The notes beneath the pieces were generated by a model. It was given only the letters and a program-made list of their open reading frames with translations, was not told where the DNA came from and made no database searches. Shown here piece after piece: positions 30,966-52,568 of a stretch of DNA of 62,144 nt. The stretch is from sequence record PX021331.1; one strand, 5' to 3'. Both the position numbers and the translations under genes were made by a program. How positions within the stretch are numbered: the first letter of the stretch is position 1; the number at the start of each line of letters is the position of its first letter. The stretch comes from a phage.

Positions 30966-32951
30966 TTAACTGTACCCGAGTTTCTCGAGCAATTTTTCGG
31001 CTTTAGCAATGTAAGTGTCGTAGTCAATGTCGCTGGGTAGCTGGTCAACCAGTTCCATCATCGGTTTACCGCCCAAAGACTTGCCTACACGGTTGCCAGA
31101 CTTAACGATCTGGATTTCTTCCTGTGGCTCACTGCTCCAGTACCATCGCACAACTTTACCGAGCGGGACGCCACCTTGCGCAGCGCCACCCGATACTGCT
31201 TTGATACAAATGAACTTGCGAACGTCCTTACATTCTGTGATCGTTTTAGCAACTGGTGTTCCATCGATAAGGGTTTTAACGACCGCATCCATAATGATCT
31301 CACCCTCAGCGTTCTTCTGGAGACCAGTTTCGCCAAACCATCCTTTACGCTTAACCTCAATCTTACCCTTCTCGTCCGGTGCTTTGATTGCGATATAGTT
31401 GTTAACGTTTGCAGCATTAAGGCGCAGGTAGTGTGACACTTCCATCTCGAAGCGTGTCTGACCTTCCCACCACTGAATAATCTGCTCGAACAACTGTTTC
31501 TGAGCTTTCTTGTACTTAACAACGATGCCGTCCGTGTTCGCGCTGACCACATGTATTCCGTTCAGCTCGAAGGTCTCGATAAGCATAAGCAGCGAAAGCT
31601 GACCTGTCAGTGTTACCTGAATGATCAAGTGCGGTGCGTACAGGATAGAGTAAGGGTTCCCGAACTTACCATACGAACCGTTGATAACGATCTTAAGGCT
31701 GTTGGCTTTCTTTTTGTCCCCTGCACGCTTCGCAGCGATACGGGTGTCAACAATCTTCTTAAACACGTCCAGGAAGCGAATCCCGAGGTGCTCAGGGTAG
31801 AGCTGCTGGTTGATGATCGCAATCGGGTAGTAAGACGTGACGTCCGCGTCCACCATTTCTTCATCGTCATCGACAAGCTGCTGCATGGTGCTTTCACAGG
31901 AGTGCAATCCCCCGATGCCCATGTTGTAGGTTGTACCGTTGATCGTGAAGTTCAGGGTGTCCATTGTGTGCGGTTGCTTAACGTACCCGTCGTCACCAAT
32001 CTTAAACACCGCATCCCGTACAATGTCGAACACGGAATTCATTAGCGGTGTCTGGAAGCGCAGGAACGTTGGCGGGTGGAAGCGGAAACGACGTCCAACC
32101 TCTACAACTGCTTTCTGCGGCTGGTAGCCCAGGATCGCTTTCATCTCGTGCTTGATTACATCTTCTGCAATCTGCGCATCAGAGCGTGAACGCAAGTCCA
32201 CCTGATACTCCAGGCTCATTTGCTCGCGTAGCGCTATCTGCTCGTCCAGTGACAGGAACAGCTCAATAGTTGTATCCAAGTCGTTAATACAGTAGAAGCG
32301 TACGATTGCAGCTTGCTCGCGGGACAGCGCCCAGTGAGGTGGGAACGGTAAATCCTGGAGCTTCTTCATGTGCATACGGCCACCGTATTGTTTCAGTGAA
32401 CCGAAGCCAGGCGCCACCTCCTGAATATCAATGTGGTCATGCCACCACTTCTTAACCCCTACGCTCTGCAACACGTCCCACGGTGCCCACTCCTCAACGA
32501 TCATACGGTCAGCAGCGGTCTTGAGGGCGTCACATGGAGCACCAGCGCACGCCATGTAAGTTAACGTGTTATCGAAGTTCCTGGAGTTGAACCCTACGGT
32601 GCGGAAGTTTTTCATTATCCATTCGTATTTAGCGGTGTCGATGGTTTCACCCGCAAACATTTCAAGATAATAAACCTTCCTGGACTTAACCCCTTTAAAA
32701 CCGACCAGGAAATAGTTCTTATAGATTTCGATATCGTATATGAACGTTTCTTGTGCGAGGTACAGCTCAATGAGCTCACCATCGGTCATTCGTGGGTCGT
32801 TGCAAGCGAAGGCAATCGCCTCCGCTAGTCCTGGCAGGTAGTCCGGTCGCTCCCAGACCTTTTCAACTGGTTGACGCTTGATCTTTTCTTTCTTGGGTTT
32901 AGCTGCTGGTGGCAGGTCTTCCCAAAAGAAACCTATGGCGTCTTTTCTCAT
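30966..32951 (-). CDS. DNA polymerase, family A-like with 3'-5' exonuclease motif
   Basis: 661 aa; Exo I-like FIYDIEIY; motif-B-like KKKANSLKIVINGSYGKFG; motif-C-like HVVSANTDGIVV. Confidence 0.75.
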   Translation of the reverse strand: MRKDAIGFFWEDLPPAAKPKKEKIKRQPVEKVWERPDYLPGLAEAIAFACNDPRMTDGELIELYLAQETFIYDIEIYKNYFLVGFKGVKSRKVYYLEMFAGETIDTAKYEWIMKNFRTVGFNSRNFDNTLTYMACAGAPCDALKTAADRMIVEEWAPWDVLQSVGVKKWWHDHIDIQEVAPGFGSLKQYGGRMHMKKLQDLPFPPHWALSREQAAIVRFYCINDLDTTIELFLSLDEQIALREQMSLEYQVDLRSRSDAQIAEDVIKHEMKAILGYQPQKAVVEVGRRFRFHPPTFLRFQTPLMNSVFDIVRDAVFKIGDDGYVKQPHTMDTLNFTINGTTYNMGIGGLHSCESTMQQLVDDDEEMVDADVTSYYPIAIINQQLYPEHLGIRFLDVFKKIVDTRIAAKRAGDKKKANSLKIVINGSYGKFGNPYSILYAPHLIIQVTLTGQLSLLMLIETFELNGIHVVSANTDGIVVKYKKAQKQLFEQIIQWWEGQTRFEMEVSHYLRLNAANVNNYIAIKAPDEKGKIEVKRKGWFGETGLQKNAEGEIIMDAVVKTLIDGTPVAKTITECKDVRKFICIKAVSGGAAQGGVPLGKVVRWYWSSEPQEEIQIVKSGNRVGKSLGGKPMMELVDQLPSDIDYDTYIAKAEKLLEKLGYS

Positions 32952-33940
32952 ATCTTGAACCCTGCAATAACCCCGCGCATATTCTCGCCATAGAATATGA
33001 TGGGCGTGTTCATGTTTCTTGCATCCATCTCGTTAAAGCGGGATGCGTCCCATTCGGTTGCCAGACCTTTAAGTTGCAGTAAAAGATCTATGTTGTAAAC
33101 CCCGACCGTCTGGAATTCTTTAAACATAGCAGAAGCACCATCAAGCTCCACATAGTGGGTTCGAGCGAGCGCGTTCTCGATGTAGACCTTACCCATCTTA
33201 TCCGCGAACGGTTTGATCTTTTCGAGGGAATTAAATAACTCGGGGTCGATAGGGTAGCATTTTGCACCCGTCTCGGTGCGTTCAATGATCGTATCAATGT
33301 TAGGCCACTCCAGAGCTAAGAGCTGGGTACGCAACCAGCACCCGTCCGCATAGTGGAACGTCATGCTGTTAGTCGCTGCGCTGATGTGCGTAGGCGCCTT
33401 TTTAATGCGCAGAAGCTCTTTGATTGCCATGCGTGGAACAACACAATCCACAGGGAACACAGCACCGAACCAGTATTGCACGATGCTAGCGTTGTTGGTC
33501 GCGTACATGCTGCCGGCTTTCACCAGCACCCCACAAGACCATGGGCGGGACGCATCGTCGCTTATAAACGGCTGTACGCGCTCTAAACCGCTGAGGAACG
33601 CATCGCCGTTAATCTCGTACATTTCACCTTCAGGTTCAACGTGTACAGTTGGCCCCGTTAAGGTGTCCACACTAACCTTAAACCCTCCAGACTTGATGTT
33701 TAACTTCCCGTTTGCAAGCATGGTCATTTGCACCGCATCTTCACAGGCTGCGATTGCTTTGAGCATGGGCTCCGCTTTAGGAGTACAGTCAATCTGGAGA
33801 CCGATTGGGGCGCAGAGTGCTATCGTACCGTTGAACCCGCGCACGTATCCATTCTCGATACGGAAGTGGGTGAGCCCCTCCTGGAGCTCTTTACGGGCGA
33901 TAGAACCCTGCACGAAACGCAGTGCGCCAAGTAATTCCAT
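32948..33940 (-). CDS. hypothetical protein coupled to DNA polymerase (speculatively clamp-like)
   Basis: 330-aa ORF, ATGA-overlapped with polymerase start; N-terminal pattern vaguely like sliding-clamp N-termini; weak basis. Confidence 0.55.
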   Translation of the reverse strand: MELLGALRFVQGSIARKELQEGLTHFRIENGYVRGFNGTIALCAPIGLQIDCTPKAEPMLKAIAACEDAVQMTMLANGKLNIKSGGFKVSVDTLTGPTVHVEPEGEMYEINGDAFLSGLERVQPFISDDASRPWSCGVLVKAGSMYATNNASIVQYWFGAVFPVDCVVPRMAIKELLRIKKAPTHISAATNSMTFHYADGCWLRTQLLALEWPNIDTIIERTETGAKCYPIDPELFNSLEKIKPFADKMGKVYIENALARTHYVELDGASAMFKEFQTVGVYNIDLLLQLKGLATEWDASRFNEMDARNMNTPIIFYGENMRGVIAGFKI

Positions 33941-34146
33941 TATTCACCCGCGTCGATGCGACGTTGCAGTTCGTTGTCGATTTCCATCATGGTGTGGACG
34001 TAAGCGCTGGAGGCTTGACTTAAATTCTGACGCAGGGTTGCCGCCGGTGCTTCGTTTTGCAGTGCTGCCGCAAGGTTGTCACAAGCTGCTTTCAGACGTT
34101 CATACATCTCTTTAGTTGTCATAGTTGTCATAATTACCTCAGTCAA
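33940..34146 (-). CDS. small hypothetical protein (68 aa)
   Basis: ORF overlapping both neighbours; helical, acidic. Confidence 0.5.
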   Translation of the reverse strand: MTEVIMTTMTTKEMYERLKAACDNLAAALQNEAPAATLRQNLSQASSAYVHTMMEIDNELQRRIDAGE

Positions 34147-35089
34147 ATAGGTCGTGAAGACGTTCGTTGAATTTCCCGTTGTGGTTAGCTAAGATCATAG
34201 CGTTGACCACACCATACGCCCACAAGTTATACGCCGCACGACTTTCATATATGGTCGATAAGCGCTCGTAGGTGAAACCGTTCTCTTCCAAATACCTTAA
34301 AACGTTGTCTTGCTCGGTTTCCGAAAGATTACAAATGTGCTGCCCTTGGGCGTGTCTTGAAGGAGATTTTTCAGAGACTTGCATTGGTCCCCATCGAGGT
34401 GTCTCAATAGCACCGAAAGCAGCGCTTTGAATCCATGAGGATGAGTCGCAGGAATACCATGGATATCTTTCCATAAGAGGTCGGGAGGTAATACCAAATC
34501 CATGGACTTTGATTTTAGCTCGTCCGCTTCCGTCCACCAGATGTTTATCCCATACTCGATCCAACCATACCTGGAGCTGTTGCGTAGACGCGCCAACAAG
34601 CCCTCCAAGAGTGATATAGTCATAGTTGGCGACGTAGTGATCGAGGTACTCAAATGGCTCATTGGCGTGGAAGCAAGGGAGGGGTCTAACTCCTCGAAGT
34701 TCCATTTCCTGCTGGTTACGCCAAGTTTGCAAGGGGTCTCCGATTCCATCAAGGACTGACGCCATAACGTTTCCATCTTCAATCCTAATGATGTCGCGGT
34801 TTCGTTCGATGTAAGCGCAATACTCTTTAACGGAGAGGGTAACTCCCAATGTATAGGCGGAGAAGGCTCCACTATCGAGGAATATCTGTGCCCCATCAGC
34901 TCGCATGGCGTCAACGAAAGACTGCTTTCCGACGTAATGCCACGATTCGAGGATGTTGGGAATATTGCGCACGAGATTTTGTTCATGCTCAGTGAGTTTG
35001 ACATAACGGTTCATGCCCGGTTTGTAGCTGTTCGTATAAACAGCAGCCATATAGATTTGGAAGGTGTAATCACATTCCGCTTTATACAT
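34139..35089 (-). CDS. dpdA: DpdA-like 7-deazaguanine DNA transglycosylase (TGT superfamily)
   Basis: 316 aa from ATG with GGAG upstream (track ORF extends to 35137); FLDSGAFS motif at the position of the TGT/DpdA catalytic Asp; adjacent to folE/queD/queE/queC. Confidence 0.7.
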   Translation of the reverse strand: MYKAECDYTFQIYMAAVYTNSYKPGMNRYVKLTEHEQNLVRNIPNILESWHYVGKQSFVDAMRADGAQIFLDSGAFSAYTLGVTLSVKEYCAYIERNRDIIRIEDGNVMASVLDGIGDPLQTWRNQQEMELRGVRPLPCFHANEPFEYLDHYVANYDYITLGGLVGASTQQLQVWLDRVWDKHLVDGSGRAKIKVHGFGITSRPLMERYPWYSCDSSSWIQSAAFGAIETPRWGPMQVSEKSPSRHAQGQHICNLSETEQDNVLRYLEENGFTYERLSTIYESRAAYNLWAYGVVNAMILANHNGKFNERLHDLFD

Positions 35090-35417
35090 CTTTCTGCTCC
35101 GGTTGCTTGACATGTTTCTCAAGTTCGGAGTGATCAAACTCAGCTTCGCTATCGCTGGTGATCAGACCGGCGTTCTTTAACCATTTCAGCATCACACGCT
35201 GACCAATGCTGATCGCATCCACCGGAGTAGGCCACTTAACCTGCTTCGCTTTGATACCGGGCACCAGCATCACAATCTTATATCGGTTCGGGTCGTCCTT
35301 GCGCCCCATACCATCGAAGGCAACGAACGCAACCTTAACAGTTCCCATCATCAGGGAATAGCTAGGTTGAGACCAGCCCTGAGCCGGGCTATAAATCCAC
35401 TTCAGTTTAACTAACAT
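35082..35417 (-). CDS. hypothetical protein inside the deazaguanine cluster
   Basis: 111 aa from ATG with GGAG 8 nt upstream (track ORF 35082..35498); stop overlaps dpdA start. Confidence 0.55.
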   Translation of the reverse strand: MLVKLKWIYSPAQGWSQPSYSLMMGTVKVAFVAFDGMGRKDDPNRYKIVMLVPGIKAKQVKWPTPVDAISIGQRVMLKWLKNAGLITSDSEAEFDHSELEKHVKQPEQKDV

Positions 35418-35475
35418 TGGAAATCTCCAAATACGAAAGCACCCCGCTATTATAACGAGCGAGGTGCTTTGATTG

Positions 35476-35598
35476 CTACAGTACGAGCCACGCGACAACC
35501 GCTACAGCAGCGATCCACCGAACGGCTTTCCACATCTTAGCGCCTTCGGTATAAGCCGGATTAACGGTCGTGTACTCTACAACGTATTTATTAGACAT
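35476..35598 (-). CDS. very small membrane-anchored ORF (40 aa), tentative
   Basis: ATG preceded by GGAGG; encodes MSNKYVVEYTTVNPAYTEGAKMWKAVRWIAAVAVVAWLVL (C-terminal TM helix); coordinates hand-counted. Confidence 0.3.
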   Translation of the reverse strand: MSNKYVVEYTTVNPAYTEGAKMWKAVRWIAAVAVVAWLVL

Positions 35599-35662
35599 GT
35601 TAAAGTCCTCCAGTGGGTATAAATTAACTATACACTAGAGGACTTTTAATGCAACTAGATAA

Positions 35663-36259
35663 TTACGCCTTGTGGCACAGGGCCAGGAACTCCGCGCGGG
35701 TCTGCGGCTCGTCCTTTATCGCGCCGCGGAGAGCAGTCGTAACAGTGTGGTGACCGTGTTGACACACTCCGCGAGACTCCATGCACATATGACGAGCTGT
35801 AATATACACCCCAACCCCAACAGGCTCGAGATGTTCCTGAATTGCATCTGCGATATTGTTGGTAAGCCGCTCTTGAACCTGTAGACGTCGTGCAAAGGCA
35901 TCCACAACACGATTGAGCTTACTAAGGCCGACAATGCGCCCGGATGGAATGTAGGCAACAGTAGCGTGGCCAAAAATGTCGGCCATGTGATGCTCACATT
36001 TGCTATAAAAAGGAATACGTACAACCGCCACCATCTGATCCGCACCTTCTGCCCCATCTTCGAACACCTTAAAGAGCCCAGGGATATCAACAGCGTAACC
36101 GCCAAACCAGTGTTCAAACGCTTTCGCAACACGGATTGGAGTTTCAAGCAAGCCCGGGCGCAGTGGGGCATCGCTATCGCCAGATTCAATAATACCCAGG
36201 ATCTCTTCCATGCGATTTGCAATCTGGGCGCGGTTCAATGCTTTATCCGTTTCGTTCAT
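35663..36259 (-). CDS. folE: GTP cyclohydrolase I
   Basis: Conserved FYSKCEHHMADIFGHATVAYIP (CEHH zinc motif) and family-typical length; start set at ATG that is ATGA-coupled to the queD stop (track start 36280 is an alternative). Confidence 0.85.
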   Translation of the reverse strand: MNETDKALNRAQIANRMEEILGIIESGDSDAPLRPGLLETPIRVAKAFEHWFGGYAVDIPGLFKVFEDGAEGADQMVAVVRIPFYSKCEHHMADIFGHATVAYIPSGRIVGLSKLNRVVDAFARRLQVQERLTNNIADAIQEHLEPVGVGVYITARHMCMESRGVCQHGHHTVTTALRGAIKDEPQTRAEFLALCHKA

Positions 36260-36756
36260 TTCGTGTATCCTACGTGACATTTAGAGGTTTCTTCAATGAC
36301 GCATTTTACCAGCTTCACACCATGTTCGGCAAGAAGCTGAGGGCCGACAACTTCGACCATATGCGCCGCCAGGTTTTCAGCGGTAGGATTGAACGGCAGT
36401 GAGACCATAGACGAGAACCAGTGCGGGCTTTCATCAATTTCGTTCGGTTCGTTTGCAATCAACATACCGATAGCGCGGATCAGCTCGTCCTCTTCCCAAT
36501 GCAAGAACTTATGATCCCAATTGTCTTCCAGCCACTGGCAGAGCGTAGTCTTAACCACACTGAAGTCAATCACGCGGCCAACATCGTCCAGGTCGGTTTC
36601 TTTGAACCCGTCTTTAGCGTGCTGGTGGATCTGGTCCGCTTCAACATGGAAGTGGAATTTGTAGTTGTGTCCGTGCAGGTGACGGCACTTGCTCTCATGG
36701 CCAACTACACGGTGGCCAGCGCAGATTTCATGCGAACGGATTACTTCATACGGCAT
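36256..36756 (-). CDS. queD: 6-carboxy-5,6,7,8-tetrahydropterin synthase (QueD-like)
   Basis: 166 aa from ATG with GGAG upstream; CxxxHGH motif (CRHLHGHNY) of the PTPS/QueD family. Confidence 0.8.
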   Translation of the reverse strand: MPYEVIRSHEICAGHRVVGHESKCRHLHGHNYKFHFHVEADQIHQHAKDGFKETDLDDVGRVIDFSVVKTTLCQWLEDNWDHKFLHWEEDELIRAIGMLIANEPNEIDESPHWFSSMVSLPFNPTAENLAAHMVEVVGPQLLAEHGVKLVKCVIEETSKCHVGYTK

Positions 36757-37147
36757 TGGATTTCTCCGCTTCAATAGCAGCTTTAATGTCACGCAGTGCG
36801 CGGATTTCATGTGCAATATATCCGTCACTGTCAGCTACTGTTTTGTTTTCAAGGATTTGGATAAGCGTATCAACATGTGTTGACATCATATCCGCAAGGT
36901 TGGAATGACCTTTGTAAATGTCTTTCCCACTAATGCGATTATACAACGCAGCCGACGCTGATTGGTACTCCGGCCAGTCATTGGCGATAAAGATACCTTC
37001 GATAACACCTTTGCCCTCGGCCACACGGCCCAGCACAACGATGTCAGTCAGGTCTTCGATCGCTTCACGCTGGTCGCGGGTAAGGTACTGTTTCACGTCC
37101 GCGTGTTTCAGCACCAGATAACGGTTCTCGAAACGTTTGTCACGCAT
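36746..37147 (-). CDS. hypothetical protein inside the deazaguanine cluster
   Basis: 133 aa from internal ATG with GGAG upstream; overlaps queD start by ~10 nt. Confidence 0.5.
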   Translation of the reverse strand: MRDKRFENRYLVLKHADVKQYLTRDQREAIEDLTDIVVLGRVAEGKGVIEGIFIANDWPEYQSASAALYNRISGKDIYKGHSNLADMMSTHVDTLIQILENKTVADSDGYIAHEIRALRDIKAAIEAEKSNAV

Positions 37148-37406
37148 TTGCTTGCTCCATAAATTCACGATATTTGCGGACGCACTCGTCTTTACTACGG
37201 GACGCAAAACAGCGCCAACCGTTGTCCAGCTTGTACGACCAGTAAAAGGCGCCAAAGCGTTTTTTCATCTGCTTAGTTACGCAGACGCTCTGTTTCAGCA
37301 TTGGGTTTTGAGACTTGATAAAGGCAGCACGTTCAGCGGCAGGTAACATCTCATAGGCCTCCTTCTGCATACTGGCATAAACCATCTCACGAAAGTTCGG
37401 TTTCAT
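37140..37406 (-). CDS. hypothetical protein inside the deazaguanine cluster
   Basis: 88 aa from internal ATG with AGGAG upstream; basic C-terminus. Confidence 0.5.
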   Translation of the reverse strand: MKPNFREMVYASMQKEAYEMLPAAERAAFIKSQNPMLKQSVCVTKQMKKRFGAFYWSYKLDNGWRCFASRSKDECVRKYREFMEQANA

Positions 37407-37437
37407 AGGTCTCTCCTGGACGTCCCTGTCCGCGGTG

Positions 37438-38853
37438 TTAGTCATTCAGATAATTAATTACTTCTGCTGCGTTATTAATACTAAACGCAGTCTTACGCAT
37501 CATGCAAGGGCCGCACGTACCGCAATGCAGATCGCCGTTCTTGTAACAGCTCCACGTATGGGCCAACGGTGCTCCCTGCTCGAGCCCCAGGGCCACGATC
37601 TCGTGCTTCATTAAGTTACCCACGGGCATGAGCACCCGCACGCGCTTGCCGTCGCCTACAGCGAACGGTAATATCGCATTAAAGCGGTTAACGAACTCGG
37701 GTTCGTTATCGGGGTAGGCGCCCGCTTCTTCCAGGTTGTTACCCAGCACGATATAATCAAACCCTTTCGCTTCTGCGTAGGCAGTGGCGACAGACAGCAT
37801 AACAAGGTTACGAGCAGGAACCCACTCATGAGCGAACTCCGCACCGGCTTCACCTCCGGCGATGGTGGAATTGTGGTCAAAGAGGGGACTATCTGTTGGA
37901 TCGTAAATGGGAATCGGGAAAAGGACAAGCGGCACCCCCATCTCTTCAGAGATTTCTTTAATCGCTTTCAGCTCGTGCTCTTCAGCACGGCAACCATATT
38001 GGAAGTTAATCAGAGTGACGTCCATACCCTGATTCTTACACACCTGCGCGGCAACGGTGCTATCCAGCCCACCACTGGCGACGACCAGTGCGCGAGGTGC
38101 GCGGGCTTCACCGTGACTAAAAAGGCTGACGCGATGGTTGCTGGAGCTGTACTTGTCGATCAGTTGACAGGTGTAAGGCTCTTGCATGTAAGGAACGCAG
38201 TTATGCGGAAGCATACTGCGCTCACTTGCTAACCACATACCTGAGTCGTTCTTACCAATCCAGATCGGACGGTAGTTGCACGCAGTGAAGATCACACCTT
38301 TAAAGGATTCATGCGTCGCCAGGATTGCGTAGCTACCTTTCAGCTCTTCAATAACACCGATAAAGATCCCGTAGGCTTCGTCCAGTGTGCGGATACCGTC
38401 TTCCGGTTCGCGCTTGGCTAACATCTCAACGATCGCAGAGCTATCAATAGCCGTTTCCAGTTTATTGGTGCGCAGCTCTTTATCATTGGCGATAGTACCG
38501 TTATGCACGATTGCCCACTTGCCCATGACATACGGTTGCTGATCGTACCCGTGTTTTTCTTTCACCCATTCGGTAGTCGGTTCAGCGCGGGCATTACCGA
38601 TCATTGTGAGCTCTTCACGGTGGATGGTTGCGTGCGTAACGATGTCGTTAATGGTTTCGTTATGCAGGTAAGAACCAGCTTTTTCCGTTGTCATGCACTG
38701 ATATGACACGTAAGGCGCTGGCAGATGGGTGATACGCGCACCAATACCATCGCGTCCGCGGTTGACAGCGTTGCGAACCATGTCGTCAACCATAACACGC
38801 AGGCGTTCTTTATCTACAACGCCGTTAGTAACAAATCCGAAGATTGAACACAT
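37438..38853 (-). CDS. queC: glutamine amidotransferase-QueC fusion (Gat-QueC)
   Basis: 471 aa; N-terminal MCSIFG (class II Ntn glutaminase, Cys2), central PP-loop ALVVASGGLDSTV, C-terminal zinc cluster CYKNGDLHCGTCGPC as in QueC. Confidence 0.8.
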   Translation of the reverse strand: MCSIFGFVTNGVVDKERLRVMVDDMVRNAVNRGRDGIGARITHLPAPYVSYQCMTTEKAGSYLHNETINDIVTHATIHREELTMIGNARAEPTTEWVKEKHGYDQQPYVMGKWAIVHNGTIANDKELRTNKLETAIDSSAIVEMLAKREPEDGIRTLDEAYGIFIGVIEELKGSYAILATHESFKGVIFTACNYRPIWIGKNDSGMWLASERSMLPHNCVPYMQEPYTCQLIDKYSSSNHRVSLFSHGEARAPRALVVASGGLDSTVAAQVCKNQGMDVTLINFQYGCRAEEHELKAIKEISEEMGVPLVLFPIPIYDPTDSPLFDHNSTIAGGEAGAEFAHEWVPARNLVMLSVATAYAEAKGFDYIVLGNNLEEAGAYPDNEPEFVNRFNAILPFAVGDGKRVRVLMPVGNLMKHEIVALGLEQGAPLAHTWSCYKNGDLHCGTCGPCMMRKTAFSINNAAEVINYLND

Positions 38854-39182
38854 TAGTTAATTCCTTCATCTGGTGAATACGGACGCCACTGAACAATTGC
38901 ATTGCGCGGCGGTGTCACAGTGGGGTTGTAGACCAGTTTAACACGGGCGTCGTTGACATTGCTATTACGGATCGTGGAACCATCCTGCAAGCGCAGATCA
39001 ACCGTGTAACCGGCGCGAAGCACTTTGAGCATCGCAAGAATCGACTCTTCCTGGCCCAGGATATCTTTCTTGTGTACTACGCATACAGAGCCAAGGAATA
39101 AGCGCTTGCGCTCGACATCAGTAAACAGCTCTTCAACGATCTCAATTGATCGTTTAGGGCATGGAGAGAACGGCGTATACAT
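38853..39182 (-). CDS. hypothetical protein between queE and gat-queC
   Basis: 110 aa from internal ATG with AGAGGTGG upstream; start abuts queE stop. Confidence 0.5.
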   Translation of the reverse strand: MYTPFSPCPKRSIEIVEELFTDVERKRLFLGSVCVVHKKDILGQEESILAMLKVLRAGYTVDLRLQDGSTIRNSNVNDARVKLVYNPTVTPPRNAIVQWRPYSPDEGIN

Positions 39183-39883
39183 TATTCCACCTCTAAGTAT
39201 TTGTGAACCTGCAATTGCACAATATACCCGTGGAACTGGCATGAAGCAACAACCGCCTGAATATTTCGTTTGTTAGCCGCCGGGTCTTGCTCGTCCATTG
39301 GTTGCAGGTAAATCGGGCCACGGTAATGAGCGGGCGGACGGGCGATGTGTGGTGTAGCGCGGTGCATAAGCGCCTGCAACGGTAAACCGTCTTCCTCGCG
39401 CATGTTGCCGGCCTGTAGCACGTATTTAAAGGCGTTTGCGCGGGCTGCTACGCTGGGATGGATCTTAGCTGCTTTTGGACTGCAAACGACGGTCGCTTCA
39501 TGGTGAAGCTCCAGCGGGATCTGCATGGTGCCGTTCGTTTCAATTTGCACCTTCAACCCTTTAATATCGATCAACCAGTTAATCAGTTGAACGACTTCAG
39601 GTTGACGGAACGGCTCGCCACCAGTGATAACGATCAAGCTCGTTTTCGCTTCACCTGTTACGCGCACAACTTCGTCCCAGATTTGATAGTGCATCATGCG
39701 CTGGCGGCCTTTAGTGTATTCCGTATCACAACCAGGACACTGAAGGTTGCAGCCAGCTAAACGGATGAACACGGCGGGGTGACCACAGTACGGGCCTTCA
39801 CCTTGGATCGTGTGGAAAATGGAATGAACATCCAAATGACGGTCACGATCAATCTTCTCAGGTTCCTGAGTATTTAGTTTCAT
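39182..39883 (-). CDS. queE: 7-carboxy-7-deazaguanine synthase (radical SAM, QueE-like)
   Basis: 233 aa from internal ATG; CNLQCPGC (CxxxCxxC) cluster and ITGGEPF motif. Confidence 0.75.
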   Translation of the reverse strand: MKLNTQEPEKIDRDRHLDVHSIFHTIQGEGPYCGHPAVFIRLAGCNLQCPGCDTEYTKGRQRMMHYQIWDEVVRVTGEAKTSLIVITGGEPFRQPEVVQLINWLIDIKGLKVQIETNGTMQIPLELHHEATVVCSPKAAKIHPSVAARANAFKYVLQAGNMREEDGLPLQALMHRATPHIARPPAHYRGPIYLQPMDEQDPAANKRNIQAVVASCQFHGYIVQLQVHKYLEVE

Positions 39884-39960
39884 AGTGTGTTCTCTGTGAA
39901 TGATGCGTAATGCTTGAAGGTATGACAAATGAAGGATAGCGGACATATGAACCTCGGGGT

Positions 39961-39991
39961 AAAGATAACAAAGGGGCCGTTAAGACCCCTT
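39961..39991 (-). terminator. rho-independent terminator for the Ala/Lys-rich gene (stem AAGGGG/CCCCTT)
   Basis: Hairpin 25-50 nt downstream of the stop at 40015, followed on the minus strand by a T-rich run. Confidence 0.5.
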
Positions 39992-40014
39992 CTGAGTTGC
40001 CGAGTTTTTACTGC

Positions 40015-40902
40015 TTACTCTGCGGACTGGTTGCCGTCCTGCGCCGTTTCAGGCTGCTGGTTTGCGCCAGCTTCCGGTGCTGGTTGGCCAGCGGTCGGAA
40101 TACTTACGCTTGCGGCCGCTGCTGCGATGTTAGCCGGAACCGGAACAGCTACACGACCGCTGATACCGTTGTATTTCTTCCAGCGAGCGTATTCAGCTTT
40201 CACGTTCGCTTCGTTCAGGCCTTTTTCCAGCGCTACCGGCAGCACGTAGGAGATCGGTGCGGTTTGACCCATCGTTGCAGAGATAGCGTCAAACAGATCC
40301 CACGCAGCGCGGCACAGGGTGCCAACGGACGGTTTACGGATACCGTTCTGCTCAGGTTCTTTCTTAGACTCGCGCTCCTGGCGTTTGCGTTCCGCTTCAG
40401 CTTCGCGGTCAGCTTTTTCCTGCGCCTTTTTAGCGTCGCGGTCTTTCTTGTCCTGCTCGGCCTGGGCTTTCTTAACTTCGCCCAGCTTGTCTTTCAGACC
40501 TTTGCCAGCGGTTTCAATCGCAGCAACCAGGCCTTCAGACTCAGTAACAGCCTGTTTCAGCGCTTCGCTGTCTTTCGCTTTGCGACCGGCAGCTTTAACA
40601 ACTTTCAGACCGTCTTTAGCGGTTTTCAGGTTGTCAGCTACAGCAGTCTGAGCGGCTTTGACGTCGTCAGCGGTAGAAGTTTCGTTCAGCGCACCGATCA
40701 CAGCGTCAACGTTGCCTTTAGCAGCGGTGATGGAGTTGTAACCGTTAGTCGCTTCGGTGATAGCAGCCTGCTCTTTAGCAGCAGCGTCGTCTTTCGCTTT
40801 CTGCTCAGCGGCAGCTTTTTTGTCTGCTTCTGCTTTGTCAGCTGCTTTCTTTGCTGCTGCTTCAGCTGCGAGTTGCTCTTTAGTTTTTTCTTTACCAGCC
40901 AT
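40015..40902 (-). CDS. Ala/Lys/Glu-rich low-complexity protein with C-terminal globular domain
   Basis: 295 aa; first ~180 aa almost entirely A/K/E/D/Q; GGAG upstream; own promoter-like element and terminator; the opposite-strand ORF 39997..40908 is Phe/Ser/Leu-rich junk. Confidence 0.65.
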   Translation of the reverse strand: MAGKEKTKEQLAAEAAAKKAADKAEADKKAAAEQKAKDDAAAKEQAAITEATNGYNSITAAKGNVDAVIGALNETSTADDVKAAQTAVADNLKTAKDGLKVVKAAGRKAKDSEALKQAVTESEGLVAAIETAGKGLKDKLGEVKKAQAEQDKKDRDAKKAQEKADREAEAERKRQERESKKEPEQNGIRKPSVGTLCRAAWDLFDAISATMGQTAPISYVLPVALEKGLNEANVKAEYARWKKYNGISGRVAVPVPANIAAAAASVSIPTAGQPAPEAGANQQPETAQDGNQSAE

Positions 40903-41978: not shown

Positions 41979-43994
41979 TCAAAACGGGATGTCGTCATCA
42001 AAGTCCATAGGCACTGGTTCACCTTTACCATTTAGCATATGGGTATTGGCGTTGAACTGCAAACTGGTAGGCTTTGCAGGTTCATCATCTTCGTCGTATT
42101 TGTTGGTGTAAGTGCCAGCACTCTTGAAGACGCTATTTTCTGCAACGACTTGCACTTCAGGGACATGCTCGCTCTTCGCTTCTTTACCGAATGCTGTACC
42201 GTCGTAACATGCGTTAAGCACATCCGGGAACTTCTTAGACATGTCAACGTAGATGTGCGTTGGTACTTTCAGTTGAGCGACAACTTCCAGCGCCTGGTCA
42301 ATACTGGTAGGAACGGGCATCGTAGTATGCTCACGCCACCAGCGACGCGCCTTGTTACCAGCGAATCCATCATGCAGTAAACAAATCCATTGGCTGATAG
42401 CGCGACCGTTGTTTCCGTCTACATGGTAGTCGACACGCAGTGTAGGCGGTTTGCTTGCGTCCCCTCTGTTGTAGTGCGCATAGTAGCTCACCAGGCTAAC
42501 GCGGAACACCTCAGTCACCGGAAGGTCATTCTTGATAATCTGTTTGGTACTTGCGCTGGCCATAAGTTTCTTCTCGAACGTAAACTCATGTCCGCAGAAG
42601 TCTTTTGCGGTAGCAATACCGTTCTTACCGCGCACGAAGTACCCGCGCAGGATAAGCTCGTTAACCTCACCGAAGGTCATGCCAGTTGTGTCGATAGGAG
42701 GTAGACCCCCACAATAACGGACTGACGCATGGTTCCACGATGAGCAGGTTGGGCACATCTTAACAGGTGCGGTGGACTTGCCTTTCTGCCCTGGACGCTT
42801 AGGCATAACAGGGTCGTTGATTGGGCCAAGGCGGCGGGTGTTACCGGAATAGTCCAGTACCAGACAGTTCTGCTTGTGTGACGCGGCTATGGCTTGCAGA
42901 CGGCCAGCAGTAGTAGACAGGTCAAACCCATCAGCATAGTCTGGGCGAGTCCCACGGCCAAGAATCTGTACCCACAACCGTGAGGATTCAGACGGTCTAA
43001 GAACGACGATAAGATCCAGGCCAGGATGGTCAAAGCCAGTAGTGAGAACGTTGTTGTTGACAACGGCGGTGATCCTTCCAGACTTAAAATCATTTATTAT
43101 TGTATCTCGTTCTTTCTTCGGGGTGTCCCCCGTCACCATTGCGCAGCTAACGCCGTGCATCTTCAGCACGCGGATAATATCTTTACAGTGCTCAACACCA
43201 GACCCAAAGATCAACCAGGATTCGCGGTTGTCCTCGCGTGCAATGTTAATCGCGTCTTCAACAAGGTACTCAGTAACCTCAGGATTGTTAACAACCTTCT
43301 GAAGCTCACTCTCAATGAATTCACCTCCGCGCTTATGTACACCGCTGACATCCAATTCTTTCTTTGTTGCCTTTGGTACTACCGGCAGCAGGTAGCCTTC
43401 ATTAATGAACCAGTTGAAGCATTCCATCGTACAAGCGTCAAACACAATTTCATCAAACATTGCGTTAGGCGCGTCATCATCCTTAACGATAGAACCGTAA
43501 CCAAGACGCCAACCTGTTGCAGTTAAGCCGATTACTTTCAAGTGTGGGTTATGCTTACGAATCTCAGCAAAGAACTTTTGATAGCTGGTCTGCTGGTTAG
43601 GACTGATCAGGTCACATTCGTCAACGATAATAATATCAACGTCTTTGAATGCTTCCGCTTTCTTAGCGACAGACTGGATGCCCGCAAATGTAATCATTGC
43701 GTTAACATCTTTACGACCGATGCCCGCGCTGTAAATACCAGCAGGAGCACCGGGCCACAGCTTCTGGAACTTATCATGGTTCTGCTCGATAAGCTCCTTA
43801 ACGTGTGTAACAACCATGGAGCGAACGCTGCCCCAATTTTCGTTGATGAACTTTAACAGACCTGCAATAACGAGGGACTTACCCGTACCCGTTGGCAGTT
43901 GGATGAGCGGGTTCCCCGACTTGTCACCATGCTTGATAAAATAACGAATGGTGGAGTCAACTGCTTCTTGTTGGTAGTCGCGGAGTTTAAACAT
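41979..43994 (-). CDS. SF2 (DEAD/DEAH-type) helicase
   Basis: 671 aa; motif I QLPTGTGKS, motif II DECD, motif III TATGWR; C-terminal Cys pair CPTCSSWNH. Confidence 0.75.
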   Translation of the reverse strand: MFKLRDYQQEAVDSTIRYFIKHGDKSGNPLIQLPTGTGKSLVIAGLLKFINENWGSVRSMVVTHVKELIEQNHDKFQKLWPGAPAGIYSAGIGRKDVNAMITFAGIQSVAKKAEAFKDVDIIIVDECDLISPNQQTSYQKFFAEIRKHNPHLKVIGLTATGWRLGYGSIVKDDDAPNAMFDEIVFDACTMECFNWFINEGYLLPVVPKATKKELDVSGVHKRGGEFIESELQKVVNNPEVTEYLVEDAINIAREDNRESWLIFGSGVEHCKDIIRVLKMHGVSCAMVTGDTPKKERDTIINDFKSGRITAVVNNNVLTTGFDHPGLDLIVVLRPSESSRLWVQILGRGTRPDYADGFDLSTTAGRLQAIAASHKQNCLVLDYSGNTRRLGPINDPVMPKRPGQKGKSTAPVKMCPTCSSWNHASVRYCGGLPPIDTTGMTFGEVNELILRGYFVRGKNGIATAKDFCGHEFTFEKKLMASASTKQIIKNDLPVTEVFRVSLVSYYAHYNRGDASKPPTLRVDYHVDGNNGRAISQWICLLHDGFAGNKARRWWREHTTMPVPTSIDQALEVVAQLKVPTHIYVDMSKKFPDVLNACYDGTAFGKEAKSEHVPEVQVVAENSVFKSAGTYTNKYDEDDEPAKPTSLQFNANTHMLNGKGEPVPMDFDDDIPF

Positions 43995-46824: not shown

Positions 46825-47772
46825 CTAGCTCATATCCACTGGATCACGGAAAGACTGGTGCGTAGGGATCCGCAGCTTGTCTTTCATACCGTGGAGGAAG
46901 AACTTAAACTTAGAAATCCGTCCCAGGAACTTATCCGGGTTCTGGAAGTAGTAAAGTCGTTCCTCATGGGTAAGTTTACCCGCGCCAACCGTCATTTCAT
47001 CACCGACCTTCAACTTAATGTGGTCAGGTAGATTTTCGGGTACGGTCAGAAGTGTGACCACATATGACCCGATCATTCCGTTCGGCACCATGTTGTCCTG
47101 ATGCGTACTGCGGAACGTTTGTCCCAGCTCGTTGATCTGAGCTTCGTTCTGGTTGGACATACCTTCATTAATGCGGACAATAACACCTTCCCCATCAGTG
47201 AAGCGTTTGATGCGACCGTACCCGCCTTCGCGCGAAGTGGCGCGTCCGCGTTTGCACGGCTTGCCGGGTTTGCGGGTAATGACACCCTCGTAACCCATTT
47301 CAATCCAGATTGCTTCCTGCTCCAGCAGCTCGTTCATGTTGTTAACGAGTACCATTGGCACAACCTTCAGATCCATTAAGCGACCTTCCAATTGTTCCTG
47401 TTCTACGTACTCGCTTAACATAGCATGACGTTTTTCGTATGGCAAGTGTTGAACACTGTCCGCGCACAAATCAAAAACGTGCCACGTCCAGAAGAACTCG
47501 CCTTCGATAGTGCTACTCGCAGAGCTGGTCTTACGACACAGATCCGGATCACACTCATCACCAGCAGCAAGCTCACCATCAAAACCCTCATAACAAGGTT
47601 TAGAGAATAAGCGTGTCAGGTGTTTGTTCGCAAACGGTTTCAAGCTACGACCCGTCAGCGTACCGTCATAGTTAAGACCGCGCACACCGTCAATCTTAGG
47701 CAGTGCGTACAGTGGGAACGAATCAGGCCGCTCCTCAAAGTCACACGCCAGGAAAGGTTTAAACTTACTCAT
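46825..47772 (-). CDS. ATP-dependent DNA ligase
   Basis: 315 aa from internal ATG with GAGGAA upstream; adenylation motif I KIDGVRG. Confidence 0.8.
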   Translation of the reverse strand: MSKFKPFLACDFEERPDSFPLYALPKIDGVRGLNYDGTLTGRSLKPFANKHLTRLFSKPCYEGFDGELAAGDECDPDLCRKTSSASSTIEGEFFWTWHVFDLCADSVQHLPYEKRHAMLSEYVEQEQLEGRLMDLKVVPMVLVNNMNELLEQEAIWIEMGYEGVITRKPGKPCKRGRATSREGGYGRIKRFTDGEGVIVRINEGMSNQNEAQINELGQTFRSTHQDNMVPNGMIGSYVVTLLTVPENLPDHIKLKVGDEMTVGAGKLTHEERLYYFQNPDKFLGRISKFKFFLHGMKDKLRIPTHQSFRDPVDMS

Positions 47773-48383
47773 TAACTGTTCCTCAGACGAATAGAGGTTG
47801 TGTCCACCAGTAGCTGACGAAACTTGCGTTTCCAATACTCTACGCTGTTTTCGTCGTTCACCTTTGCGACTGGTGTGACCTTCTTTGCACTCGCAGGCTT
47901 AGAGTCTTGTATCTGTTTCTTTAAACCTGCGCAGTGGATCTTCTGACGCTCCATCCGCATGTACTTGCCCGCAGTTTCATCACATCTGTTTTGGGCTTTG
48001 GTGCGGTTCTGGTCACAGCGATTATTGTGCCCTTTAATATGCTTGAACTGCAATGTGAGGTCGTTTGCTTTAGCAATACGCTCCATCCAGTCCAGCGCTT
48101 CTTTCTCTGCGCGGCGTGCGGGACGCTTGCGCGTAAACATATCGATTGCTGGCATACAATCCATTTGAAGCAGAATACGGTCACCCCGCATTACGTAGCC
48201 GTTTGTGATAGCATGGTGCAATCCGTTGCACGCGGCTTTAGCTTCCGCTTCACCGCTATCCTTTGTGCCAGTTAACGGCCCGCCGAATGTACCCCTGCCG
48301 CGGTTCGACGCAACCCACACGCCATATCCGCCAGCAAGGGTATTCGGGCAGAATGACGCATCAGTAATGATGGTCACTAACAT
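47772..48383 (-). CDS. ribonuclease H
   Basis: 203 aa; IITDASF...GGYGV and later KGHNNRCD resemble RNase HI motifs (TDGS...GGxG, KGH...CD). Confidence 0.7.
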   Translation of the reverse strand: MLVTIITDASFCPNTLAGGYGVWVASNRGRGTFGGPLTGTKDSGEAEAKAACNGLHHAITNGYVMRGDRILLQMDCMPAIDMFTRKRPARRAEKEALDWMERIAKANDLTLQFKHIKGHNNRCDQNRTKAQNRCDETAGKYMRMERQKIHCAGLKKQIQDSKPASAKKVTPVAKVNDENSVEYWKRKFRQLLVDTTSIRLRNS

Positions 48384-48893: not shown

Positions 48894-49481
48894 TTAAAAC
48901 TTCTTACCGCCTTCCAGCTTGCGGTTCTCTAACTTGTGGTCAGCACGGTTGGCGTTATATGCACGTTTATCACCAATGGCAGCAGGAATATCCCAGCCCC
49001 AATTCTCAGCGTGATAAATCATGTCCATAACGATCGCCAGCTCGAATGCAGCAACAGGCAGAGTTGTTTCAATAGCGGCGTCAAGCTGCATGATTTGGTC
49101 TTTGCGAACACCTTCCAGCGCGAAGCCAATGTGAGCGTGAAGGTCTGCGTAATACTTATAGAAGTTTACGTTTTCGTAAGACAGTGGAACCACTTCCGCA
49201 GCGTCCAGGCTGTATACAGCTTGCAGCGCTTTCTCAATGTTCCACCCTTTGTGACCAAAGAAGTCGTAGATGCGAATTGCAGCATCCGCCAGCTCAACGA
49301 CTGCGTTTTGGTACTGTGGCAGGTGATGATCAGGAATGTCCTGCTCAAACCCCACATAGGACTCAACTACTTCTGAATGGATCAGAGCAATGGTAGTCCC
49401 GTCTGGGCGGCCATCCGCCCACCAGCCAGCCTTGACGTTATGGTCGTAGATAGCTTTTACCAGTTCATTAGTGATGTTCAT
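48894..49481 (-). CDS. MazG-like nucleoside triphosphate pyrophosphohydrolase (putative)
   Basis: 195 aa; all-alpha NTP-PPase-like acidic motifs ALIHSEVVESYVGF and AVVELADAAIRIYDFF. Confidence 0.5.
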   Translation of the reverse strand: MNITNELVKAIYDHNVKAGWWADGRPDGTTIALIHSEVVESYVGFEQDIPDHHLPQYQNAVVELADAAIRIYDFFGHKGWNIEKALQAVYSLDAAEVVPLSYENVNFYKYYADLHAHIGFALEGVRKDQIMQLDAAIETTLPVAAFELAIVMDMIYHAENWGWDIPAAIGDKRAYNANRADHKLENRKLEGGKKF

Positions 49482-49942
49482 GTTGCGCTTCCGTTACGTT
49501 TGATATATTCAAGGGCGTGCGCTTTAAAGATTACACGGAAATCATCCAGTGAGATCTCGCAGCGCGGGGGATCATCTGCGTGATGGTGCTTCTCATCAGC
49601 AAACAGTATGATAGGATTCATAAACAGAATGACTTTCCACTTCTGTTTATTCTGACGATAGATAAGTACGGGAAACTTATTAACTTCGAGCGCACTTACT
49701 AAACACTGGCGCCACCATGTGTTTATTGAGAGCGCTTCTTGTCTCTTAACTTCGACAGCATAGAAACAAGTATTGGAAATATCACAACCGCCAACAGCCG
49801 ACTGGTTCTGATTTCGTTGGGCGATAGGCTTAGGTGGGAGCGGCATGTGTAGCGCTGCATATACTTCTGCATAGATGCTATTAAAGAAGTCACAAATTTC
49901 TCTTTCACCAGTTTGCCCCTTAGTTCTTACGTTGATTGCCAT
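49478..49942 (-). CDS. PD-(D/E)xK-like endonuclease (possible resolvase)
   Basis: 154 aa; GGCDIS...YAVEVKRQ fits a D...E-x-K pattern. Confidence 0.45.
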   Translation of the reverse strand: MAINVRTKGQTGEREICDFFNSIYAEVYAALHMPLPPKPIAQRNQNQSAVGGCDISNTCFYAVEVKRQEALSINTWWRQCLVSALEVNKFPVLIYRQNKQKWKVILFMNPIILFADEKHHHADDPPRCEISLDDFRVIFKAHALEYIKRNGSAT

Positions 49943-52543: not shown

Positions 52544-52568
52544 AAAAAGGGCCCAGCGGGCCCTTTTT
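52544..52568. terminator. bidirectional rho-independent terminator (stem GGGCCC/GGGCCC, A5 and T5 flanks)
   Basis: AAAAAGGGCCCAGCGGGCCCTTTTT between the plus-strand acidic gene and the minus-strand primase-helicase stop. Confidence 0.7.

Follow-up and report, generated by a model that had tools for sequence, protein, structure and literature searches.

The 62,144-bp phage sequence PX021331.1 (the window, i.e., the whole stretch of DNA analysed) carries a minus-strand cluster at 34139–39946 that encodes the five enzymes QueE, Gat-QueC, QueD, FolE and DpdA. This cluster is very likely a complete 7-deazaguanine DNA-modification module of the type known from phage 9g, which combines a DpdA1-type transglycosylase with a Gat-QueC fusion protein, and it would be expressed together with the replication genes of a lytic siphophage of the subfamily Queuovirinae. 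Judged from their sequences, all four activities leading to the precursor preQ0 are predicted to be encoded (FolE, QueD, QueE and the QueC domain of Gat-QueC), with intact catalytic motifs. In the following sections, we describe the enzymes, the predicted pathway and its likely product, an unusual pattern of palindrome depletion in the genome, and the relation of the cluster to known systems.

Organization of the cluster

The open reading frame (ORF) list shows an unbroken run of minus-strand genes across 31–43 kb, five of which are queE, gat-queC, queD, folE and dpdA. A polymerase gene (30966–32951), a clamp homologue (32948–33940) and a helicase gene (41979–43994) flank the cluster, which places it inside the replication module. 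The same order, namely polymerase, clamp, dpdA, folE, queD, gat-queC, queE and helicase, is common to phages 9g, ChristophMerian, K9PH25C2, CAjan and Vid5. An initial annotation of the window, made from the sequence alone, had described five adjacent minus-strand genes spanning 34139–39883. All five genes are indeed present on that strand, but they are not strictly adjacent, as four small conserved ORFs are interspersed among them, and the right edge has to be moved to 39946, where queE starts; position 39883 corresponds to the internal Met22 of QueE. The window probably represents about one whole phage genome, because near-identical metagenomic contigs are 61.9–62.2 kb long.

The precursor enzymes FolE, QueD and QueE

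Translations were scanned for motifs and compared by profile searches with Pfam, NCBIfam (using trusted cut-offs) and PHROG. Every diagnostic motif that the initial annotation had quoted for the five enzymes was found in the translations, and its proposed family assignments held for FolE, for QueD and QueE, and for Gat-QueC, each of which matched its own family; DpdA was recovered by a single PHROG family.

FolE (35663–36259, minus strand; 198 residues) is a GTP cyclohydrolase I. It matches Pfam GTP_cyclohydroI (2.7e-62), scores above the trusted cut-offs of two NCBIfam models (NF006825, 203 bits against 174; TIGR00063, 191 bits against 181.6), and contains the motifs CEHH (residues 88–91) and HMCMESRG. 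The longest ORF extends to 36280, and the alignment with 9g FolE (62% identity) begins at Met8 of this longer frame. QueD (36256–36756, minus strand; 166 residues), a 6-carboxytetrahydropterin synthase, matches Pfam PTPS (1.6e-22) and the QueD-like PHROG 2389 (8.4e-51). It carries the motif CRHLHGH at residues 24–30, shares 65% identity with 9g QueD, and has a GGAG ribosome-binding site ahead of its ATG at 36756. QueE (39182–39946, minus strand; 254 residues), a radical-SAM 7-carboxy-7-deazaguanine synthase, is matched by Pfam Radical_SAM (3.6e-10) and Fer4_12 and by the QueE-like PHROG 2076 (4.9e-62), and contains CNLQCPGC (residues 66–73) and GGEP (residues 109–112). It is 72% identical to QueE of 9g and 94% identical to that of K9PH25C2. 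We place its start at the ATG at 39946 because a GAGG ribosome-binding site is present there and the resulting 254-residue protein is colinear with QueE of both phages.

The Gat-QueC fusion

The gat-queC gene (37438–38853, minus strand) encodes a class-II (Ntn) glutamine amidotransferase fused to the preQ0 synthase QueC. Both domains lie in a single ORF of 471 residues, in which Pfam identifies GATase_7 (6.4e-7, residues 104–215) and QueC (2e-55, residues 254–459), and PHROG 10428 matches over the full length (6.8e-220). The protein begins with MCSIFG (residues 1–6) and contains the PP-loop motif SGGLDS (residues 260–265) and a C-terminal cysteine cluster (C436, C444, C447 and C450). It is colinear with its counterparts in 9g (62% identity), ChristophMerian (64%) and K9PH25C2 (85%). 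Cys2, RGRDG, HNGTIAN, D137-S138 (within IDSSA), the PP-loop and the C-terminal cysteine cluster are kept in all four proteins, in which the only variable motif positions are L263 of the PP-loop (Leu/Met) and S139 of IDSSA (Ser/Ala). The QueC half shares only 30% identity with the stand-alone QueC of dPreQ0-making Seuratvirus phages. A QatC protein of the Qat anti-phage defence system was also considered and rejected: the corresponding model NF041925, with its cut-off at 280 bits, gave 24.8 bits and covered just 31 residues.

The DNA transglycosylase DpdA

The dpdA gene (34139–35089, minus strand) encodes a DNA guanine transglycosylase of the DpdA1 type. Its start is most likely the ATG at 35089, as in 9g, rather than the upstream TTG at 35137, which gives a protein of 316 residues with the motif FLDSGAF at residues 70–76. 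PHROG 887, named “queuine tRNA-ribosyltransferase”, was the sole match in the family libraries (5e-95). DpdA is 90% identical to its homologue in 9g, 73% to that in Vid5 and 68% to that in CAjan. In CAjan DpdA, Asp206 was assigned as the nucleophile and Asp63 as the base, with a pocket formed by Ser64, Phe67, Asp105, His132, Gly153, Gly154 and Phe189 (Kot et al., PMC7544227). Alignment of the two proteins, with an offset of 9, pairs these catalytic residues with D215 and D72 and the pocket with S73, F76, D114, H141, G162, G163 and F198. None of these residues is missing here, and none varies among 33 homologues. The protein has the features expected of a DpdA1: a barrel of the TIM type resembling that of tRNA-guanine transglycosylases (TGT), two catalytic aspartates and a preQ0 pocket.

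Several results weigh against these assignments and have to be set beside them. QueD reached 4.4e-17 with TIGR03367, which is under the cut-off; the top NCBIfam matches of QueE were five QueE models at 66–89 bits, all under their trusted cut-offs; and the QueC model TIGR00364 gave Gat-QueC 150.1 bits against a cut-off of 150.3, which is 0.2 bit short. DpdA had no Pfam or NCBIfam match at E ≤ 0.01, including the TGT family PF01702, and a phmmer search against PDB sequences returned chance matches only, such as the MS2 coat protein. Because the sequence libraries were silent, the fold of DpdA was examined. The AlphaFold2 model, built with 33 homologues, is of moderate confidence (pLDDT 67.8), and Foldseek matched it in the PDB to generic TIM barrels only. 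The kinship of DpdA to tRNA-guanine transglycosylases and to bacterial DpdA is visible at the fold level only.

Predicted pathway and product

In the pathway that we propose, FolE would convert GTP to dihydroneopterin triphosphate, from which QueD would form 6-carboxytetrahydropterin and QueE 7-carboxy-7-deazaguanine; the QueC domain of Gat-QueC would then produce preQ0. After replication, DpdA would exchange guanine in phage DNA for the deazaguanine base in a TGT-like reaction, with Asp215 as the nucleophile and Asp72 as the base. The glutaminase domain of Gat-QueC, with Cys2 as its nucleophile, would supply ammonia, before or after insertion into DNA, to turn the nitrile into the formamidine of archaeosine, so that the end product would be 2′-deoxyarchaeosine (dG+). 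Modification probably affects G in the contexts GA and GGC and would block restriction of types I and II wherever a site includes one of them, while sites that cannot be protected in this way would instead be purged from the genome.

Experiments on related phages provide the background for this scheme. The folE, queD and queE genes of 9g complement the corresponding Escherichia coli mutants (Hutinet et al., PMC6884629). DpdA of 9g alone inserts preQ0 into plasmid DNA, and together with Gat-QueC it yields dG+ at up to 18% of G and resistance to EcoRI, also in a queC mutant (PMC6884629). Nonagvirus phages with Gat-QueC have been described as dG+ phages (PMC8594841). The base itself has been measured solely in 9g (about 25% of G) and in the Pantoea phage vB_PagS_Vid5, whose DNA contains dG+ at 7.6% of G and negligible dPreQ0 (PMC8306585). 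Since both phages have Gat-QueC clusters, Gat-QueC is conserved, and the ORFs scanned include no gene that could lead the pathway elsewhere, this phage likely makes dG+ as well. Pfam scans of 30 further ORFs, which covered those above about 100 residues except for a few of 100–120 residues, revealed no QueF, ArcS, YhhQ or other transporter, no DpdL/M/N-like protein and no methyl- or formyl-transferase. The identity of the base had been flagged as an inference in the initial annotation, rightly so, and this still applies to dG+. It is extrapolated from proteins that are 62% (Gat-QueC) and 90% (DpdA) identical to those of 9g, and the modification level differs widely between relatives, from 25% of G in 9g to 7.6% in Vid5; both points count against the proposed scheme.

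Two other outcomes of the pathway have to be weighed. The module could be active but deposit dPreQ0 for the most part, or several bases together, for example dPreQ0 and dADG, if the glutaminase were weak or inactive in this lineage. The divergence of Gat-QueC from the 9g enzyme, which lies mostly in the Gat half, would fit such a loss, as would the insertion of preQ0 by 9g DpdA on its own, the traces of dPreQ0 left when Gat-QueC expression is low, and the mixed products of Vibrio phage nt-1 (PMC6884629). However, Cys2, RGRDG, HNGTIAN and D137-S138 do not vary between the window, 9g, ChristophMerian and K9PH25C2, the fusion is retained at full length in 66 phage records, and both measured Gat-QueC phages contain dG+ with negligible dPreQ0. 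We therefore regard a mainly dPreQ0-containing or mixed DNA as improbable. It is far less probable still that the cluster serves to modify tRNA with queuosine or archaeosine, or to raise the queuosine supply of the host and so tune translation, rather than to modify phage DNA. FolE, QueD, QueE and QueC do form the precursor pathway of tRNA queuosine, and both PHROG and GenBank label the DpdA homologue a queuine tRNA-ribosyltransferase. Yet 9g DpdA fails to complement an E. coli tgt mutant (PMC6884629), in addition to its activity on plasmid DNA, and no tRNA gene was found in the whole window by ARAGORN; on these two grounds the tRNA reading was rejected. The lack of any Pfam or NCBIfam match for DpdA and the palindrome footprint, which indicates an effect at the level of DNA, also argue against it. 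Modification of phage DNA, with dG+ as the likely base, is thus the reading that we retain.

A palindrome footprint in the genome

Counts of all 64 six-base palindromes in the genome were compared with a maximal-order Markov expectation. Among the testable palindromes, 31 lack GA and GGC and 21 contain one of them. Ten of the 31 are strongly depleted, compared with none of the 21 (Fisher p 0.003). Six of these ten are absent from the genome: GGTACC (KpnI; 19.8 expected), AAGCTT (HindIII; 16.8), ATGCAT (NsiI; 14.8), GTGCAC (ApaLI; 11.9), GCATGC (SphI; 11.3) and AGTACT (ScaI; 11.3). The remaining four are CTGCAG (PstI; 2 observed, 21.5 expected), GCGCGC (BssHII; 3 and 28.7), ACGCGT (MluI; 2 and 15.0) and ACCGGT (AgeI; 2 and 11.1). 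Sites with GA or GGC occur at the expected frequency, for example those of EcoRI (13 observed, 10.8 expected), EcoRV (14 and 14.1) and BamHI (17 and 14.8). The genome also has 15 BglII and 10 StuI sites, as well as 270 sites for RsaI (GTAC), 12 for SspI and 22 for DraI.

GA and GGC are the target motifs that have been measured for CAjan DpdA (Kot et al., PMC7544227). The same pattern is seen in other deazaguanine phages, in which no depleted site contains GA or GGC (K9PH25C2, 0/7; 9g, 0/9; Vid5, 0/5; CAjan, 0/6), in contrast to deazaguanine-free phages of E. coli and Klebsiella (T1, 3/8; T7, 4/9; HK578, 4/11; KP36, 6/17). Pooled, the counts are 0/37 and 17/45 (p = 1e-5), with the proviso that sites are not independent among related phages. 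Palindromes with GGC have an observed-to-expected ratio of 0.92 here; the other deazaguanine phages give 0.94, 1.19, 0.72 and 0.70, and the controls 0.11–0.29. Of all G in this genome, 28% stands in a GA or GGC context, a share close to the modified fraction determined by mass spectrometry in 9g (25%) and CAjan (32%). The contexts that we infer to be unprotected here (GC, GT and GGT) are those still cleavable in CAjan DNA (PMC7544227). Likewise, four enzymes with GA in their sites (EcoRI, EcoRV, BamHI and BglII) fail to cut 9g DNA, and RsaI, with the GA-free site GTAC, cuts it to completion (PMC5567051).

As indirect evidence, the footprint points to an active module, to a DpdA with a specificity like that in CAjan, and to a complementary relation between modification and site avoidance. 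Tentatively, and at somewhat less than even odds, we suggest that the genome bears a readable footprint of its own modification, in which restriction-type palindromes have been purged only when they lack the DpdA contexts GA and GGC. Several points count against this suggestion. The GA/GGC motif was measured in CAjan, whose DpdA is 68% identical and whose product is dPreQ0, and not in a dG+ phage; Tsai et al. found no bias of flanking bases among resistant 9g sites (PMC5567051); the comparison rests on four controls and on related test genomes; and one or two DNA methyltransferase genes are annotated in each of the records of T1, HK578 and KP36. The pattern could instead reflect shared ancestry or the restriction systems of particular hosts, and be independent of DpdA specificity. 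Six depleted sites are common to the window, K9PH25C2 and 9g, which are relatives of one another; furthermore, expected counts for the GGC class are low in both 9g and CAjan. Against this explanation, which we consider rather unlikely, the more distant Vid5 and CAjan, with different hosts or genera, show the same absence of GA/GGC sites among their depleted palindromes, all four E. coli and Klebsiella controls deplete such sites, with the marked difference in the GGC class given above, and the contexts inferred to be unprotected match exactly those cut in CAjan DNA.

Tsai et al. (2017) had listed 13 six-cutter sites that 9g lacks, for which they saw no clear reason and considered coincidence possible (PMC5567051). 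A text search of the two papers on target motifs, Kot 2020 and Olsen 2023, revealed no mention of avoidance, depletion or palindromes. Complementary site avoidance is the only part of this analysis that goes beyond the literature consulted, and it may be new. If true, modification and site avoidance would form two complementary anti-restriction layers, in which selection acting on the sequence adds to a partial modification that reaches about a quarter of G. It would also mean that the target motif of DpdA can be predicted cheaply in silico from sequence alone. The footprint deserves a wider, phylogenetically controlled comparison. For this phage, the cluster itself is useful for annotation and for the choice of restriction enzymes and sequencing chemistry; should phage therapy be considered, the cluster also helps to estimate how strongly the phage is likely to resist restriction of types I and II.

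Small ORFs and neighbouring genes

The four small ORFs within the cluster, all on the minus strand, each have a Shine–Dalgarno sequence and are each conserved in relatives. orf109 (38853–39182) lies between queE and gat-queC; its ATG overlaps the queE stop codon and is preceded by a GAGGTG ribosome-binding site. It is 47% identical to LOCUS61 of K9PH25C2 and shows 34–39% identity to residues 21–98 of 9g gp7, a protein of 253 residues, and of ChristophMerian gp33. Because it aligns only to these residues, we consider orf109 a shortened relative of their N-terminal part. A PDDEXK_7 match was weak and sub-threshold (E 4e-4). orf88 (37140–37406) has an AGGAG ribosome-binding site and is 94% identical to ChristophMerian gp31 and 90% to LOCUS63 of K9PH25C2; it had no family match in Pfam, NCBIfam or PHROG. 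orf133 (36746–37147) shares 81–84% identity with ChristophMerian gp30 and LOCUS64 of K9PH25C2, and matches PHROG 7810, a family of unknown function (1.4e-14). It is variably present in close relatives. Uncultivated 62-kb contigs from two sequencing runs (L007 and L008) are 96–99% identical to the window across the cluster, except for orf133: positions 36767–37144 are the sole part of the cluster that they lack. orf133 is thus a small gene that is gained or lost within the cluster among near-identical genomes.

orf111 (35082–35417), a small lineage-specific gene, forms an insertion that separates folE from dpdA. It is found in this sublineage of Queuovirinae only, is absent from 9g, and has only eight protein clusters among 5.8 billion. 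In every contig read it occupies the same position, with an overlap of 8 nt with the start of dpdA. Its structural model is confident (pLDDT 83.5), but no informative structural or sequence relative was found. It is possibly a lineage-specific accessory factor of DpdA, a suggestion that is weaker than that of the palindrome footprint. A gap of about 165 bp (35498–35662) separates folE from orf111; relatives have a called ORF of 40 residues there, and the gap contains a weak promoter-like site (35603–35574, minus strand). In 9g, the spacing between folE and dpdA is just 70 bp.

A terminator-like hairpin with a 9-bp stem followed by a T-run (39970–39992, minus strand) lies just upstream of queE. 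This putative element, identified by a consensus scan, may set the transcript of the upstream gene apart from that of the cluster; apart from this hairpin, the number of promoter and terminator sites in the scan was no higher than chance. The upstream gene (40015–40902, minus strand) encodes a strongly charged protein of 295 residues rich in Ala, Lys and Glu, whose position is conserved in relatives. The genes that correspond to it by position in CAjan and Vid5 are annotated “transcriptional activator”. The 295-residue protein had no Pfam family match; in the same search, 9g gp7, orf88, orf133, a 244-residue upstream protein and CAjan gp39 and gp40 gave nothing or only matches at E 0.028–0.09. 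Further replication and repair genes on the minus strand encode the SF2 helicase at 41979–43994, a candidate ATP-dependent ligase with a sub-threshold match (46825–47835), an RNase H (47772–48383), a PDDEXK_15 nuclease (49478–49942) and a primase-like protein of 846 residues with AEP, NrS-1 helix-bundle and DUF3987 matches (52568–55108).

Relatives and comparison with known systems

A megablast search with the cluster matched 23 phage records, and every one with a taxonomy belongs to the Queuovirinae or relatives. The best matches were the Klebsiella phages vB_Kpn_K9PH25C2 and vB_Kpn2-P2 and the Escherichia phage Ec1-ASingh, with 82–85% identity over 80–85% of the query. The structural region shares 76–78% identity with the same three phages over about half its length, and the phage is therefore a new species. 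In Nonagvirus phages (9g, JenP1/2, JenK1 and ChristophMerian), the cluster matches mainly at dpdA, with 15–38% of it covered, and 18–25% of the first 25 kb is covered at 74% identity. Similarity to 9g and its relatives thus stays below the Nonagvirus genus level of about 70% or more over the genome. From these sequence comparisons, we classify the phage as an unclassified member of the Queuovirinae with K9PH25C2 as its nearest relative; the K9PH25C2 record, the only one of the three whose taxonomy was read, is assigned to the Queuovirinae with no genus.

Among known systems, the bacterial Dpd system is the most remote. It forms part of a restriction-modification system and produces dPreQ0 and dADG at <0.1% of G. 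Neither the bacterial Dpd proteins (DpdA, DpdB and DpdC of Salmonella Montevideo) nor tRNA-guanine transglycosylases have detectable sequence similarity to DpdA of this phage, and the DpdB ATPase and DpdC are not present here. The dPreQ0-producing Seuratvirus CAjan has its cluster at the same genomic position, with the core of FolE, QueD, QueE and DpdA and identical active-site residues in DpdA. It differs in having a stand-alone QueC and a preQ0 transporter; here, QueC is fused to Gat, and no transporter-like (YhhQ/VUT) match was found among the ORFs scanned. The syntenic cluster of the Vidquintavirus Vid5 also includes Gat-QueC and has an extra VUT/YhhQ-type transporter gene.

The closest clusters are those of K9PH25C2, vB_Kpn2-P2 and Ec1-ASingh, which have orf88, orf133 and orf109 in common with the window, at identities well under the species level. 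K9PH25C2 lacks orf111 and instead has an ORF of 57 residues at that position. Finally, the Nonagvirus 9g has an identical set of five enzymes, with gene order and orientation unchanged, flanked by the clamp and DNA polymerase genes on one side and the helicase gene on the other; this supports the initial annotation in its reference to 9g and relatives. Its genome also lacks HindIII, KpnI, ApaLI, ScaI, SphI and NsiI sites. Differences from 9g include additional small genes, namely orf111 in the folE–dpdA interval and the pair orf88 and orf133 in the interval from queD to gat-queC, the reduction of the counterpart of gp7 from 253 to 109 residues, a GC content of 51% compared with 44%, and a nucleotide similarity that outside dpdA is too low for megablast, which matched 15% of the cluster. 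With protein identities of 62–90% to 9g, the cluster is, as originally recognized, of a well-described type: a further, somewhat divergent example of a well-studied anti-restriction system and not a new one.

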